The notes below the pieces were generated by a model. The model did no database searches. It worked only from the letters and a program-made list of their open reading frames with translations, and was not told where the DNA came from. From Octopus sinensis (taxonomy: Eukaryota), in NCBI RefSeq assembly GCF_006345805.1, contig NW_021828135.1:1-8776 (forward strand): a stretch of 8,776 bases of DNA, written 5' to 3'. Position numbers and translations under genes: made by a program. The stretch's first letter is position 1; the number at the start of each line of letters is the position of its first letter. Below, piece after piece: positions 1 to 7,400 of the stretch.

Positions 1-200
1 GGAGCGGATGATATCAATATGAATGAGCTTAAAGCGGGCATCTGGGATGGAAAGAGTACCCAAAGGTGCCCGAATATGACGTTGCACTTTAGACTTCTGA
101 AATATCGGGTGCGACAAATTATGGAGCGCCGAAAATGCAGTTCATCTGTGCCCCTTAGGAACGTAAGGTCAAGATATACTGGTAGACACGTCACACAGGT
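1..200 (-). pseudogene. Integrase N-terminal (HHCC zinc-binding) region and start of catalytic core, internally deleted
   Basis: CDVST...PYVP...ALHNLSHP joins directly to IFQKSKVQRH...PDARFKLIHIDII; the usual G..AT...WP...CxxC segment is missing at ~105. Confidence 0.88.
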
Positions 201-349
201 AGATGAATCTGAAGAAAATAATGGTAACTGCCGGAGGTTCAAAGAGTGAGAATCCGATGACTTGAGAAACGAAAATTCTTGATCATAATATTGATCCAAG
301 ACTAATTGTTGAAAATCAATTGAATCAGAAGTGTGCAAAGCGTTAATAT

Positions 350-665
350 GAACGCGAGATAAGGCGTCAGTTGCAGCATTATCAACACCCTTGCTGTATT
401 GAATGTCTAAGGTAAACTGAGAAATAAAATCCAAATGTCGTAAATCTCGGGGAGAAAATTTATCAGATTCTGATTTCAAAGAAAATGTTAATGGTTTGTG
501 ATCTGTAAAAAGTGTCAGAAATTTTTAGCAGCAAGATAAGCAGGTATTACATCTAGACTCGGTAGGCTTGAATCCGCGAGAAAAAAATGCAAGTGATTGT
601 CTGTTACCACTGACCAAGTGTTGAACAACTGCGCCTACACCGACATCATATGCATCAACCACCAC
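350..665 (-). pseudogene. Ty3/Gypsy RNase H domain, inactivated
   Basis: VVDAYDVGVGAVVQ (DAS motif altered), LAFFSR, FTDHKPL, NAATDALSR; the 'RELLA' segment carrying the catalytic Glu appears deleted near 540. Confidence 0.92.
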
Positions 666-961
666 TGACAAAGGTACCTCAAGAATGTAGTGTGCTAACT
701 GTTACTTTGGATAACTGATCCTTGATATTTTCAAAAGCTTGCAGTTAAGAAGAATCTAGTGGTATAGCTTCGTTCTTCTTACGATTTTTCAAGAGTTCAG
801 CAAGAGAACAGATAGTTTCCGTACAATGAGGAATGAATCTCCTGTAGAAATTCATGAGACTAAGAAATTCGCGTAACTTCCGTAATGAAGTAGGAGTAGG
901 GAAATAGTTTCAATACGAATACGAATAACTTCAATTTTATCAGGTAATGTCAATCGAATGT

Positions 962-1500
962 CCTAGAAAAGTGAGTGAAGGAACGCCAAACACACATTTA
1001 CTAGCCTTAATAATTACATCATATTTCGTCAAACGAGTAAAACGTTGCTACAAGTGTGATAAATGGTCTTCTTCAGTAGAGCTAGCTATCAAAAGATCGT
1101 TGATTTAGGTGAAGACAAAATTTAACCCACGAGTTACTTCATCCATGAAGCATTGGAAAGTGCTGGCAGCGTTTCTCAAACCAACTGACATGCACAAATT
1201 CAAAAAGGCCAAATGGTGTGGTTATGGCGGTTTTAGGAATGTCAGACGGTTCAACTGGAATTTGGCTTTAAACTCGCACCAAAGCGATTTTAGAAAAGAT
1301 AGAGCAACCGTGCAAAGATGCTGAAAAATCATGTAAATTGGGTTACGGATAATGATCAGGAATTGTCATGGCATTTAAACGACGAAATTACCACATGACC
1401 GTCAGTCTGAAGAATTTTTCTGGGAGACAAATATTCCTAAGTCAAGCATGTGACGAAACTCATCTTTAGCGACTCTGAGTTTGTCTAGAGCAAGATGCCG
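962..1500 (-). pseudogene. Reverse transcriptase domain, inactivated
   Basis: KTAITTPFGLFEF and GLRNAASTFQ motifs present; the catalytic YIDD reads *IND (TAA ATC AAC GAT on - strand, 1096-1107); several other stops and frameshifts. Boundaries approximate. Confidence 0.95.
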
Positions 1501-1769
1501 AGGAGCAGAAACCACAGGAGGACCTTTAGTAAGAATATATTGCGTTACAGAGTACACTGGAGATTTATTTTGAAAAACGGTTTGGGTCAACTCTGGAAAT
1601 TTTGATAGCAACTCATGAAAGACATTCGAAGGAGATAGAATTAAAAAATAGAGAACTAATAGTAGCAATACTTGCAAACGCACCTTGAGTAGAAAGAAGA
1701 GTTTGTACCACGACACAAAGAATGAAATAAATCCGATAAATTTTAGATGTATGCTCCTAATTACGATTT

Positions 1770-1799
1770 CAGAGATACTATCGAATAGACAAGAGTCAC
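1770..1799 (+). repeat. 30-bp dispersed direct repeat, copy 1
   Basis: CAGAGATACTATCGAATAGACAAGAGTCAC; 28/30 identical to 2484-2513. Confidence 0.9.
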
Positions 1800-1995
1800 C
1801 TGGCTTTGCTGCAGCATACATTAAAGCCTTAGTGGATATTCAGTTGAGACAGAAAATAAGAATAAACGTAACTTTATACTGTGTTACATAAGCTAGCGAA
1901 GGTTATAATTGTAAACTAAAAAACATGTACGAATAAGATTACATACAGTACGAAGAATATACAGCTACATACTCACGCGCGCGCATAAACATGCA

Positions 1996-1998
<3 letters not shown>

Positions 1999-2036
<38 letters not shown>

Positions 2037-2065
2037 TGCGTGTGCGTGCGTGTGTGCTTGTGTGT
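1999..2065. repeat. (GT)18 microsatellite with degenerate GT/GC extension
   Basis: Pure GT 1999-2034, then GGTGCGTGTGCGTGCGTGTGTGCTTGTGTGT; preceded by CACGCGCGCGCATAAACATGCACAC. Confidence 0.98.
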
Positions 2066-2483
2066 AACGAACAGCAACCAACTTTCTGAGGAAGGATTCG
2101 AAATCAAACCCATATATTTCTACGAGTCAACGGCCTATTGTTTTAGCCTGTTGCACCAAAAAATTTATGAGAATATACTGACCCCTTGATTTTTTTCGAG
2201 GCATTCATCTGTCAAAGCTGACTAGAGAAGAAAAATTCCTTGTTTTCGATTGATCTAATTCAATTATGAAGAATATAAATACGAAAAGCAAATCGCTTTC
2301 TATCTCTCTTTGGGTCGATCCCTCTCTGACCAAAGAGCAACTTTTTCAGTCAACGCGCGAAAATAGCTTTATCACTTTCTTTACTTCCCTTGACTTTATT
2401 ACTATTTCTTTCTCACGTAGTCACAGAGATGAAATTATTAACAAATGGACTGAAGATCTACAAAGAACTTATGTGTACACAAA

Positions 2484-2513
2484 CAGAGGTACTATCGAAT
2501 AGACAAGAGTGAC
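2484..2513 (+). repeat. 30-bp dispersed direct repeat, copy 2
   Basis: CAGAGGTACTATCGAATAGACAAGAGTGAC; 28/30 identical to 1770-1799. Confidence 0.9.
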
Positions 2514-2945
2514 TTCTATAAAAAGTTATATTTTCTATATTGTAACGACATAATAATCATATTAATAAATACATTTGACCGGCAGATTTAGAAAATAATT
2601 TTTTGTAAGTAAACACTTTCAAACTTCGTAAACTGGTAGAATGTGTCATATAAAACATCTTTTATTCTTAGTGTTTTTTAGAAAAGTTTATGTTTACGAA
2701 GTTGTTTCGTTTTAAAGTTGTCGTATTTCGGTAATTTCAACGAATCAATGACGTGTATTCAGTTGAATAAAATTACTGCTGTTGTTTGTCAACAGCAACT
2801 CCTTCCATCCAAGTTTGTCATTCTTTTGTTTACATTTCATATCGTACAGTTAACTATGTTTTCTGTTCGGCAAATTTTTATTTGCTTACATGTTGGCACG
2901 TTCATAAGCCTGCAAACAATTTTGTTCAGAGTTCTGTGAATACTA

Positions 2946-2990
2946 ATTCTACGAAGATTGATTCCTCGAAGACTGATTCCGCGAAGGTTA
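2946..2990 (+). repeat. 15-bp minisatellite x3
   Basis: ATTCTACGAAGATTG / ATTCCTCGAAGACTG / ATTCCGCGAAGGTTA. Confidence 0.85.
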
Positions 2991-3053
2991 ATACCGTGTA
3001 TTGATGAAGGGAAATACCCTGAAACCAGAGTGGTCTACTGGTCTTGTAATCGC
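2981..3053 (+). ncRNA. Type I hammerhead ribozyme motif (HHR-A), C3U core variant, predicted cleavage after GUC at 3035
   Basis: Helix I ACCG(U)GUA 2993-3000 / UACUGGU 3036-3042; core UUGAUGA 3001-3007; helix II AGGG-aaaua-CCCU 3008-3020; GAAA 3021-3024; helix III CCA-gag-UGG 3025-3033; UC 3034-3035. Possible distal helix I: GCGA..UUA 2981-2990 / UAAUCGC 3047-3053. Confidence 0.82.
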
Positions 3054-3179
3054 TAGATAGCAGGGGTTCGCAATATATCGGACACAGGTAGTGTCGTTAA
3101 CCAACTGGAGATGTCCTCCTGGGGTTAATAAAATGGTAGTAACATAGTTCCGTATGGAACAATCATGTTGAATGAACAA

Positions 3180-3261
3180 CAAACATTACGGGTTTCGCAT
3201 CCATAAAACTCTGACGAGACCAAACATTACGGGCTTCGCATCCATAAAGCTCAGGCGAAAT
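3180..3261 (+). repeat. 41-bp tandem duplication (2 copies)
   Basis: CAAACATTACGGG(T/C)TTCGCATCCATAAA at 3180 and 3221 (27/28 identical); the following 13 nt are 8/13 identical. Confidence 0.9.
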
Positions 3262-3272
3262 GTGTGTAAAGG
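3208..3272 (+). ncRNA. Decayed type I hammerhead-like motif (HHR-B)
   Basis: CUGACGA 3211-3217, G...C closing pair, GAAA 3257-3260, then UGUGUGUA (GUA 3266-3268). This would be the palindromic GAAACGCGCGUA after three CpG->TpG changes. Helix I and the base of helix II pair poorly. Confidence 0.35.
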
Positions 3273-3282
3273 TAAGCGCTAT

Positions 3283-3297
3283 ACACACACACACACA
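3283..3297. repeat. (AC)7 microsatellite
   Basis: ACACACACACACACA. Confidence 0.9.
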
Positions 3298-3544
3298 TTA
3301 TTAAGTATCTTCTCCAGCGCTGCTTTCCAACTCAGGATCTTACAACATGAACGAAACTCTGCTGTTGAACATTCTAACCCGGGTCGCCGACTTTGGATAT
3401 CATTTTACACCCTTTCACAAACTACATTCTTAACGTCAACAGCCAACTTGGTTGGTCACTCTCTCATTTCATAGTTTGCTTCAACAGACTTCAATCACGT
3501 CCCTGCTGTATTCTTGGGATATTCTTTTATTTGTAAAATTACTT

Positions 3545-3628
3545 TTCATCTGATGATTAGGGATTTTGCAATGGAGTAATATTCTCATTCTTCTATTTAA
3601 AAAATGCGTAAGAAACTGCTGTAATGAG
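3545..3628 (+). ncRNA. Type I hammerhead-like motif (HHR-C) with minimal helix III and long helix II, predicted cleavage after GUA at 3623
   Basis: Helix I UUCAU 3545-3549 / AUGAG 3624-3628; exact CUGAUGA 3550-3556; helix II UUAGGGAUUUU 3557-3567 / AAAAUGCGUAA 3601-3611 (9/11 paired) with inner hairpin AAUG(G)AG/CUCAUU; GAAA 3612-3615; C-ugcu-G-U-A 3616-3623 (ACUGCUGU, one change from palindrome ACAGCUGU). First helix II pair is the atypical U-A. Confidence 0.58.
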
Positions 3629-3970
3629 CTGACAATTATCCATTGTATGTTATTATTCATTTGATTATAATATACCAAGAGGATTTACAACTTGTTGGAC
3701 CCTAGAATATGCCAACAACGTACAATTCAACATACCGCGTGCTTTGGACCAGCCCCTAGGCGTTAAATACTCATAGAATTGGTTTTCTCTGAGTCAACAA
3801 CTGGAATATACTATCTGATACTTACTAACCATAGGGTGGACTTACAGGTTTATCCAGCCCTATCTGATGCACATATTTTCAATTACCTGTGTCTGTGTGT
3901 ATATGTCTCCCGAAGAGCCATTGGGGAATGAAAGTATATTTAGTAGGACTAAAGATAGTGGAATAAATAC

Positions 3971-4207
3971 CATCATCATCATCGTTTAACGTCCGTTTTC
4001 CGCGCTAGCACGGGTTGGACGGTTTCGACCGGGGTCTGGGGAGCAAGGGACTGCCCCAGGCTCCAGTCTAGTCTGGCAAGTTTCTACAAAGCTGGATGCC
4101 CTTCCTAACGCCAACCACTTCCGCGAGTGTAGTGGGTTTTTTACGTGCCACCTGCACAGGTGCCAGAGGGGTCTGGCATCGGCCACGTTCGGATGGTGCT
4201 TTTTTAT
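3971..4207 (-). mobile_element. 5'-truncated SINE-like interspersed repeat with (GAT)n 3' tail
   Basis: (CAT)4 at 3971-3982 is a (GAT)n tail on the - strand. The - strand core TGGTTGGCGTTAGGAAGGGCATCCAGCTTTGTAGAAA (4081-4117) resembles, from recall, the conserved 'Meta'-type SINE domain and an abundant Octopus repeat. Internal duplicated GG(TGC)TTTTTA motif at ~4134 and ~4195. No tRNA-like A/B-box head seen. Confidence 0.7.
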
Positions 4208-4434
4208 GGTGGGGGGGGTGCAGAAATATAGGGGAGCACCAGTGGGAGGGGTGGTTCAGAGAAATGATGACAGGTTCTAGGCAAGTAGAACGTAGGATAT
4301 CAAGAGAGGGGTAATGCATGGTGAAATAGGCGTATTGAAGAGGGGGTTCGAAAGTAGACACCTATTATGGTGGTGGGAGAAGCGACATCCGGGATGGATG
4401 GAGCAAAAATATAGAGATATCCAGTATTGGTGGT

Positions 4435-4451
4435 GGGGTGGGCAGGGCGGG
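4435..4451 (+). other. Canonical G-quadruplex-forming motif
   Basis: GGGG-T-GGG-CA-GGG-C-GGG (loops 1/2/1), preceded by GGTGGT; a longer-looped G-tract cluster lies at 4211-4251. Confidence 0.75.
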
Positions 4452-4456
4452 TGCAC

Positions 4457-7400
4457 CGCGAATACACGATGGTTGATGAATCCACGAGAGGCGAGATGGG
4501 TAATGGATAATTAGTTAAAAAATTAGATAGATATAGAAATTAGTTAAAATAGTTAGATAGATAAGAAAGCAATGGTTGATTGATGGGGAAGTGAAATAAT
4601 AATAAGCCATTCAACTTATCTGTTAGATGAATGAATGAATGTAAGAGCAAAGTTGGGCTGCGGTTTTTTTTTTTTTAAATAAAGATTGTCGGAGGAAGAA
4701 GGCGCGAATACACGATGGTTGATGAATACACGAGAGGCGAGATGGGTAATGGATAATTAGTTAAATAATTAGATAGATATAGAATTAGTTAAAAATAGTT
4801 AGATAGATAGGAAAGCATGTATGATTGATGGGGAAGTGAAATAATAATAAGCATTCAACTTATCTGTTAAATGAATGAATGAATGAAGAGCAGAAGTTTG
4901 GGGCTGCGTTTTTTTTTTTTAAATAAAGATTATCCGGAGGAAAGGCGCGAATACACAATGGTTGATGAATACACGAGAGGCGAGATGGGTAATGGATAAA
5001 TTAGTTAAATAATTAGATAGATATAGAAATTAGTTAAAAATAGTTAGATAGATAAGAAAGCATGTATGATTGATGGGGAAGTGAAATAATAATAAGCATT
5101 CAACTTATCTGTTAGATGAATGAATGAATGAAAGAGCAGAAGTTTGGGGCTGATTTTTTTTTAAAATAAAGATTATCCGGAGGAAGAAGGCGCGAATACA
5201 CGATGGTTGATGAATACACGAGAGGCGAGATGGGTAATGGATAATTAGTTAAAATAATTAGATAGATATAGAAATTAGTTTTATAGTTAGATAGATAAGA
5301 AAGCATTTATGATTGTGGGAAGTGAATAAATAAGCATTCAACTTATCTGTTAGATGAATGAATGAATGAAAGAGCAGAGTTTGGGGCTGCGTTTTTCTTT
5401 TTAATAGAGATTGTCCGAGGAAGAAGGCGCGAATACACGATGTTTGATGAATACACGAGAGGCGAGATGGGTAATGGATAAATAGTTAAAATAATTAGAT
5501 AGATATAGAAATTAGTTAAAATAGTTAGATAGATAAGAAAGCATGTATGATTGATGGGGAATGAAATAATAAATAAGCATTCAACTTATCTGTTAGATGA
5601 ATGAATGAATGAAAGAGCAGAAGTTTGGGGCTGCGTTTTTTTTTAAATAATAAAATGTCCGGAGGAAGAAGGCGCGAATACACGATGGTTGATGAATACA
5701 CGAGAGGCGAGATGGGTAAGGGAAAATTAGTTAAAAAATTAGATAGATATAGAATTAGTTAAAAATAGTTAGATAGATAAGAAAGCATGTATGATTGATG
5801 GGGAAGTGAAATAATAATAAGCATTCAACTTGTCTGTTGATGAATGAAGAATGAAAGAGCAGAAGTTTGGCGCTGCGTTTTTTTTAATAAAGATTGTCCG
5901 GAGGAAGAAGGCGCGAATACACGATGGTTGATGAATACACGAGAGGCGAGATGGGTAATGGATAAATAGTTTAAAATAATTAGATAGATAGAGACTTAGT
6001 TAAAAATAGTTAGATAGATAGGAAAGCATGTATGATTGATGGGGAGTGAAATAATAATAAGCATTCAACTTATCTGTTAAATGAATGAATGAATGAAAGA
6101 GCAGAAGTTTGGGGCTGCGTTTTTTTTTTTTTTAAATAAGATTATCCGGAGGAAGAAGGGCGAATACACGATGGTTGATGAATACACGAGAGCGAGATGG
6201 GTAATCTAAATTAGTTAAAATAATTAGATAGATATAGAAATTAGTTTTAAATAGTTAGATAGATAAGAAAGCATGTATGATTGATGGGGAAGTGAAATAA
6301 TAAATAAGCATTCAACTATCTGTTAGATGAATGAATGAATGAAAGAGCAGAAGTTTGGGGCTGAGTTTTTTTTTTTAAATAAGATTATCCGGAGGAAGAA
6401 GGCGCGAACACGATGGTTGATGAATACACGAGAGGCGAGATGGTAATGGATAAATTAGTTAAAATAATTAATAGATATAGAAATTAGTTTTAAATAGTTA
6501 GATAGATAAGAAAGCATTTATGATTGATGGGAAGTGAAATAATAAAAAGCATTCAACTTATCTGTTAGATGAATGAATGAATGAAAGAGCAAAGTTTGGG
6601 GCTGCGTTTTTCTTTTTAAATAGAGATTGTCCGGAGGAAGAAGGCGCGAATACACGATTTTGATGAATACACGAGAGGCGAGATGGGTAATGATAAATTA
6701 GTTAAAATAATTAGATAGATATAGAAATTAGTTAAAAATAGTTAGATAGATAAGAAAGCATGTATGATTGATGGGAAGTGAAATAATAAATAAGCATTCA
6801 ACTTATCTGTTATGAATGAATGAATGAAAGAGCAGAAGTTTGGGGCTGCGTTTTTTTTTTAAATAAAGATTGTCCGGAGGAAGAAGGCGCGAATACACGA
6901 TGGTTGATGAATACACGAGAGGCGAGATGGGTAGGGATAAATTATTAGTTAAAATAATTAGATAGATATAGAATAGTTAAAAATAGTTAGATAGATAAGA
7001 AAGCATTTATGATTGATGGGGAAGTGAAATAATAAATAAGCATTCAACTTATGTGTTAGATGAATGAATGAATGAAAGAGCAGAAGTTTGGCGCTGCGTT
7101 TTTTTTTTAAATAAAGATTGTCCGAGGAAGAAGGCGCGAATACACGATGGTTGATGAATACACGAGAGGCGAGATGGGTAATGGATAAATTAGTTAAAAT
7201 AATTAGATAGATATAGAAATTAGTTAAAAATAGTTAGATAGATAGGAAAGCATGTATGATTGATGGGGAAGTGAAATAATAAATAAGCATTCAACTTATC
7301 TGTTAAATGAATGAATGAATGAAAGAGCAGAAGTTTGGGGCTGCGTTTTTTTTTTTTAAATAAAGATTATCCGGAGGAAGAAGGCGCGAATACACGATGG

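Follow-up and report, generated by a model that had tools for sequence, protein, structure and literature searches.

A cluster of hammerhead ribozyme motifs in Octopus sinensis as a probable patchwork of three repeat families

Known hammerhead-bearing elements and the octopus cluster

The hammerhead ribozymes (HHRs) of Penelope-like elements (PLEs), their diversity within single genomes, the occurrence of nearby motifs, retrozymes and a Hydra family of octopus have already been published. According to the accessible part of PMC8557442, PLEs of the Hydra clade are characterized by a C-terminal GIY-YIG domain, a CxCX5C linker, a CxxC motif before a conserved E and a CxH motif after a conserved N. 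The same part describes back-to-back inversions for PLE insertions, and its supplement lists Hydra-1_Obim of Octopus bimaculoides together with its HHR. In the portions available of two further sources, hammerheads were proposed to act as dimers through a palindromic helix III, with low activity (PMC4209133), and retrozyme units were reported to derive from PLE terminal repeats (bioRxiv 10.64898/2026.07.22.740005).

The window analysed here is an entire contig of 8776 nt from the 2.72-Gb genome of Octopus sinensis. In the initial annotation, three co-oriented type I HHRs (A, B and C) had been proposed, and their letters were indeed found in place: the cores UUGAUGA at 3001, CUGACGA at 3211 and CUGAUGA at 3550, GAAA at 3021, 3257 and 3612, and GUH ends at 3035, 3268 and 3623. 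The motifs originate from genuine type I HHR families, yet they do not constitute a three-ribozyme cassette. With high confidence, the cluster is considered a patchwork of fragments from three separate type I HHR repeat families, which likely arose by independent insertions and local rearrangement and not as one element. Each piece maps to a dispersed family of its own, as in the suggestion that several different PLE or retrozyme families had inserted at one spot. All copies of A, B and C that were observed are old and decayed, and the cluster is likely an ordinary pile-up of such elements with no working multi-ribozyme unit. The features of the locus are collected in Table 1.

Table 1. Features identified in and around the hammerhead cluster (window coordinates)
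Feature	Position	Strand	Details
Family D, unrelated dispersed repeat ending in a 15-nt minisatellite	2800-2995	+	supplants the helix I 5' strand of family A
Truncated fragment of family A	2998-3189	+	from a tandem, circularly permuted, retrozyme-like unit of about 350 nt
HHR-A	2998-3038	+	core UUGAUGA 3001-3007; helix II 3008-3020; GAAA 3021-3024; GUC site 3035
41-nt tandem duplication across the A/B junction	3180-3261	+	copies 3180-3220 and 3221-3261
Antisense scrap of family B hammerhead	3190-3209	-	helix II 3' arm, true GAAA, start of helix III
Sense scraps of family B hammerhead	3211-3281	+	core half 3211-3220; decayed core and helix II 5' arm/loop 3252-3281
(CA)n tract, then about 75 nt without family assignment	3282-3372	.	
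Family C 3' end, 5'-truncated, Hydra-clade PLE	3373-3902	+	
HHR-C	3545-3628	+	core CUGAUGA 3550-3556; GAAA 3612-3615; GUA site 3623

The annotation had named Rfam models and a type I descriptor as suitable checks. In Rfam, no hammerhead was recovered among the eight matches at E<=10. A type I descriptor of our own was run on positions 1-4400, on both strands, and compared with 300 dinucleotide shuffles. HHR-C was detected by the strict form (1 observed against a shuffle mean of 0.01), and HHR-A joined it once U3 was allowed (2 observed, mean 0.023, none of the 300 shuffles as high). HHR-B appeared only in the loosest form, with 1 bp in each of helices I and II, at which shuffles already average 0.75 hits. 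In this comparison, A and C exceed the shuffles, and B as drawn lies at chance level. Alternative sites at 3043 for A, and at 3274 and 3299 for B, with 1-2 bp in helix I, were rejected.

The missing Rfam match, the chance level of B as drawn and a contig of only 8776 nt would all suit an explanation by chance matches, or by an assembly artefact of a small unplaced contig. The family alignments refute such an explanation where A and C are concerned, and it holds only for B as drawn: 86-90% of the helix cells pair in each of families A, B and C, against 26-51% when the alignments are slid. A contig from sequencing run X6, possibly from the same study as the assembly, spans 2800-3525 with no difference, and most of the stretch is also covered, piece by piece, by run X7 of a different study. 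The agreement of these short-read contigs with the window shows that the junctions exist in the DNA and are not assembly errors. For the cluster as a whole, chance or artefact is thus given a practically negligible probability.

Repeat families behind the three motifs

Family A. A genome search with 2960-3090 returned at least 39 other places at 72-89% identity, none of them beginning before window position 2998, and the copies cease to match near 3189. In copies elsewhere, an identical family sequence extends to either side, forming tandems with a period of 342-356 nt (L002, L015, L017 and L021) which often have an inverted partner. The second units in L015 and L021 carry damaged or partial HHRs, and no longer arrays were seen among the loci fetched. 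About half of one unit is left in the window, and its HHR is damaged. In the family, the hammerhead is canonical, with 6 bp and a further 6 bp distally in helix I, 4 bp in helix II and a palindromic helix III. Pairing reaches 86% of cells, against 31-38% when slid, in an alignment of 23 of 29 rows from which rows without the upstream strand were omitted; covariation was not above that of shuffles (470 of 500 as high). Of 22 copies, 10 retain an intact core and 19 have C3. In the window, HHR-A carries U3 (C3U) in place of the canonical CUGANGA, and its helices I, II and III, the last near-palindromic, comprise 3, 4 and 4 bp, respectively. Helix I is reduced to 3 bp because the upstream DNA belongs to another repeat, family D.

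Parts of family D were matched at seven other places at 73-83% identity, and none of the matches between the window and those loci fell within A, B or C. A donation of a hammerhead half from D to A was considered and rejected, as D copies run on into other sequence. The minisatellite of family D is present in three copies in the window (2938-2986) and in more than 10 copies in another locus (L270:1620-1840).

Among the loci examined, neither a linked PLE protein nor any protein-coding partner could be identified for the family A unit. One Hydra RT remnant, close to an A locus (L005/L057), was rejected as a partner, as it lies beyond an inverted A end and at one place only. Family A, alone among the three, looks like a non-autonomous retrozyme-like unit. 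Judged by its sequence, it would fit a non-LTR retrozyme, its units being short, non-coding, arranged in tandem and equipped with a type I HHR.

Family C. The best 40 places found with 3420-3760 showed 79-86% identity, besides inverted partner pieces. Copies end together near 3902 and thin out upstream, as expected from 5'-truncated retroelements. The family hammerhead displays 5 bp in each of helices I and II, the latter closing 41-51 nt, and 14 of the 29 copies have a perfect palindrome of 8 nt as helix III. Pairing was obtained for 89% of cells, against 26-49% when slid; covariation did not exceed that of shuffles (141 of 500 as high), and RNAalifold gave no consensus fold. In the window copy, the core is intact, with 5, 3 and 2 bp in helices I, II and III, and the features of a type I HHR are present. 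It differs by one change in the helix III palindrome and one in helix II, which closes an insert of about 46 nt. An intact core is kept in only 15 of the 29 other copies.

Longer copies of family C revealed a protein-coding past. Among 36 loci screened, the end of a GIY-YIG endonuclease was located about 1.0-1.3 kb upstream of the HHR at seven places and 0.55 kb upstream at one more. The C locus L199 contains the CxCX5C, CxxC-E and N-CxH motifs, and a full HMMER search with its ORF returned 1358 proteins at E<=0.001. One homolog, P0074, contains RWK, DKT, YRDD and all three cysteine motifs; matches to this long protein or to another one, P0098, occur in most of the B loci and in 13 of the 30 C-body loci. 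Upstream of the family C HHR itself, only the linker and endonuclease region is recognisable in the copies fetched, which are truncated.

Family B. The element drawn as HHR-B is no ribozyme and consists of debris, both inverted and duplicated, from a second family of Hydra PLEs. Neither 3190-3281 as a whole nor 3190-3345 matched anything other than itself in the genome search. For a 16-nt pattern taken from B, 137 matches were obtained, compared with 25 when the pattern was reversed as a control, and the loci with this pattern bear a hammerhead on the strand opposite to it. In 19 copies chosen via a tolerant pattern, 90% of the cells of this hammerhead pair, and compensatory changes in helices I and III, driven by two subfamilies, were as high in none of 500 shuffles.

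The inversion and duplication can be followed letter by letter. The antisense scrap at 3190-3209 is identical at 19 of 20 positions to L141 and L128 (14-19 of 20 over the five copies compared), and recurs in decayed form at 3231-3250. The two copies of the 41-nt duplication are identical at 35 of 41 positions. In the sense direction, 3211-3220 agrees with five natural copies at 9-10 of 10 positions and 3252-3281 at 20-22 of 30, against 5-8 of 30 at a one-base shift; the helix II 5' arm of the latter breaks off at the (CA)n tract, ahead of the GAAA of the family. The GAAA at 3257-3260 used in the initial annotation aligns with GAGA at 3216-3219 in the first duplication copy. The CUGACGA half of B is genuine, and its matching true GAAA half lies on the minus strand. 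Since the GAAA of the drawing is a decayed duplicate of GAGA and the true GAAA is antisense, HHR-B as drawn is a chimera. Its helices I and II comprise 1 bp each, and its forced fold lies 29 kcal/mol above the minimum. Back-to-back inversion of this kind is common in family B.

Several of the earlier statements have to be amended accordingly. The predicted cleavage sites at 3035 and 3623 are the sites of families A and C, and the one at 3268 does not correspond to that of family B. Co-orientation applies in part, and fails for B with its pieces on both strands. The spacers are not copies of each other, as had been noted, apart from the 41-nt tandem duplication inside B, which had been overlooked. 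The lengths of 233, 355 and 588 nt were computed correctly; since B is not a hammerhead at this locus, the 233- and 355-nt products are without basis.

Family B copies encode a GIY-YIG remnant upstream of the hammerhead. In a protein search for this endonuclease, in which the best 150 of 5772 candidates were scored, 10 of the 20 loci fetched, the query's own included, showed a B-type HHR 318-618 nt past the match to the endonuclease. An RT motif YRDD, the endonuclease and the HHR follow in this order in L175 and L187, and YRDD and the thumb were identified upstream of the endonuclease in L175, L187 and L191. The CxCX5C linker, CxxC-E and N-CxH motifs of the Hydra-type endonuclease were found in L180, L174 and L177; RWK/DKT motifs were not convincingly visible in nine B loci. 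Pfam recognised neither the Hydra-type endonuclease nor the RT, and two word-based protein searches with B fragments gave no matches. A long N/S/T-rich low-complexity insert separates the YIG motif from the linker region in L180 (742-1704), where it is in frame, and in other B loci.

A GIY-YIG ORF beside the B locus L094, with its RT relatives, was rejected as the partner of family B because it is of another PLE type and antisense to the B hammerhead. Well-preserved RT/GIY-YIG sequences of this other type, with a CX4CxxC linker, were observed near B or C copies, and not linked to them, in L094 (2145-2744), L087 (1830-3237), L131 (1-840) and L188.

In both families B and C, the HHR is located near the 3' end, in sense. 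From their motifs, the two are identified as putative protein-coding Hydra-clade PLEs, of which the window keeps 3' ends or non-coding scraps. Of the non-autonomous families supposed earlier, only A looks to be one. The observation that no PLE ORF is present in the window was reproduced: eight PLE proteins gave no tblastn or HMM match.

Joint or separate arrival, and predicted activity

The borders of A (2998-3189) and C (3373-3902) are sharp and distinct, and inverted partner copies, typical of PLE insertions, are present in families A, B and C. At the A/B junction, none of the best 40 other matches to 3100-3420 ran past 3195. The flanks are likewise a patchwork of unrelated repeats (2063-2350, 2574-2800, 2800-2995 and 3963-4460). 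Co-occurrence was investigated with natural-copy probes in 3-kb loci, the 57 A loci including some places twice. Probe C was detected in none of the 57 A loci and none of the 45 B loci, and probe B in none of the 57 A loci and none of the 29 C loci. Probe A was absent from the 45 B loci and detected in one of the 29 C loci (L083), downstream of C, which is the reverse of the order in the window. The genome DNA searches score the best 40 candidates and thus represent a sample, which a rare joined copy could escape.

Further repeats were observed along the contig. The region 2574-2800 belongs to a young repeat (86-92% alike) also present in L276 (1362-1800), where it enters TTAGGG-like repeats, and in L277 (1305-1860), where it forms a long palindrome. 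The repeat at 3963-4460 is very common, being present in many fetched loci, and resembles an RTE-type LINE/SINE 3' end. A 244-nt satellite in 17.6 copies (92% matches), purine-rich on the plus strand, extends from 4457 to the contig end at 8776; its copies differ mainly by small indels and contain no hammerhead under the stricter descriptors. Open frames at 3-524 and 1402-1839 (minus strand) gave no Pfam match; their motifs resemble those of the RNase H end and the RT start of a Ty3/Gypsy pol. A 30-nt direct repeat at 1770-1799 and 2484-2513 (93% alike, 714 nt apart) may reflect the duplication of part of the 1402-1839 element.

The abundance of the families was estimated from forty 10-kb stretches at round coordinates, in which B was found four times, C once and A never, and from exact patterns, which gave 6 matches for A, 260 for B and 44 for C, and none for the controls. 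Under uniform independence, with rough copy numbers, about 0.001-0.5 loci would be expected to hold exactly these three families within 1 kb, an estimate which is post hoc and ignores other HHR families, which do exist. This low expectation suggests that some insertion preference or local bias may be involved. The families could thus have arrived separately and non-randomly, if the HHR-bearing families, PLEs and retrozymes alike, prefer common targets, for instance (TA)n/(CA)n tracts or each other's ends, and nest. The (CA)n tract between B and C would agree with this, as would the 4-nt overlap shared by A and B at their junction, the several A copies which stop where the window copy stops and enter TA-rich tracts, and the insertion of Hydra families into (TA)n reported in the accessible part of PMC8557442. 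Cross-family neighbours are however rare, with one positive in six probe comparisons, and the B motif was found in only one of six long C loci, 5.7 kb off. Shared targeting is regarded as unlikely to be the main explanation; it is less a rival of the patchwork of independent insertions than a refinement of it.

The hammerhead of the parent elements would cleave an RNA precursor, likely as a dimer via the palindromic helix III, as can be proposed from the available parts of PMC4209133 and PMC7229834. The cut would give a transcript end or a unit-length RNA, which might then be copied by a Penelope reverse transcriptase. The copies in the window are decayed; A and B presumably cannot cleave, and cleavage by C would be at best weak, as its palindrome is broken and no second C copy is present in the contig. 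Cross-pairing of helix I between A and C amounts to 0 bp in either direction, so that the two cannot form a joint dimer. The locus is thus probably inert or nearly so. In two runs guessed to be RNA, contigs cover 3057-3243, 3319-3485 and 3587-3846 at a depth of 2-4; strand, start and end are not shown by them, and they are uninformative on expression.

Also considered was a composite cassette, either mobile or exapted, with B dead and a 588-nt RNA released by A and C. A and C lie on the same strand, both of their sites are family sites, the C core is intact, and in one direction 6 bp can form between the helix III strands of C and A. Against these points stand the C3U change, the 3-bp helix I of A and the lack of a cross helix I. 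Hammerhead folds lie 6.5 (A) and 10.7 (C) kcal/mol above the minimum, a weak objection, as natural family copies do not fold as monomers either. No second locus with the junctions was found among those examined, and the multi-ribozyme cassette of the initial annotation fails on the same ground, the A-B-C arrangement recurring at no other locus examined. A composite cassette is consequently judged highly improbable. Equally slight is the chance that the locus is transcribed and that HHRs A and C excise a 588-nt chimeric, circularisable RNA, a nascent retrozyme made from different Penelope-type ends.

With the patchwork of decayed fragments as the preferred reading, the cluster by itself is of little importance, and the by-products of the analysis, families A, B and C, are modest. 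It illustrates that in repeat-rich, Penelope-rich genomes, the hammerhead halves of different elements can yield false ribozymes and false cassettes.

Comparison with known systems

Families A, B and C appear to be previously unreported within the literature searched, in which they were not found themselves; the supplements of bioRxiv 10.64898/2026.07.22.740005, which lay outside the search, may list related families. No paper was found there that describes an octopod retrozyme-like unit with a canonical hammerhead like that of family A. A look-up of three short motifs from A, B and C gave no match in the accessible part of the PMC8557442 supplement, in which line breaks or cut runs could hide them.

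As far as the available parts of PMC7229834 and bioRxiv 10.64898/2026.07.22.740005 describe metazoan non-LTR retrozymes, family A resembles them in its partial head-to-tail tandems of non-coding units of about 350 nt, with one canonical type I HHR per unit. It differs from them in that the arrays observed comprise only 1.1-2 units, often contain inversions and are about 70-90% alike. The minimal PLE hammerheads, according to the accessible text of PMC4209133, are likewise found as diverse HHR families per genome, mostly as single motifs from truncated PLEs, with some close opposite-strand pairs, palindromic helices III and predicted low-activity dimers. A minimal PLE variant with U3 is compensated there by A8, whereas in window copy A, a member of a C3 family, U3 occurs together with G8 and is a change private to this copy.

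With Hydra-clade PLEs, as presented in the accessible part of PMC8557442, families B and C share the GIY-YIG and cysteine motifs, the downstream sense HHR, the 5' truncation and the inverted partners; the window differs in holding non-coding scraps only. In a by-eye comparison with the part of Hydra-1_Obim available, the RT stretch of the B locus L187 was identical at 46 of 57 residues. The Hydra-1_Obim HHR also has the layout of B, with a bulged base after G10.1, a long helix II and a palindromic helix III with a one-base centre; its letters differ from those of both B and C. Unlike Hydra-1_Obim as given in this source, family B has an endonuclease with the N/S/T-rich insert, and the family C HHR has U-A in place of G10.1-C11.1 and the helix II insert of about 46 nt. 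Families B and C thus extend the Hydra clade, and the hammerhead of C is unusual for its long helix II insert.
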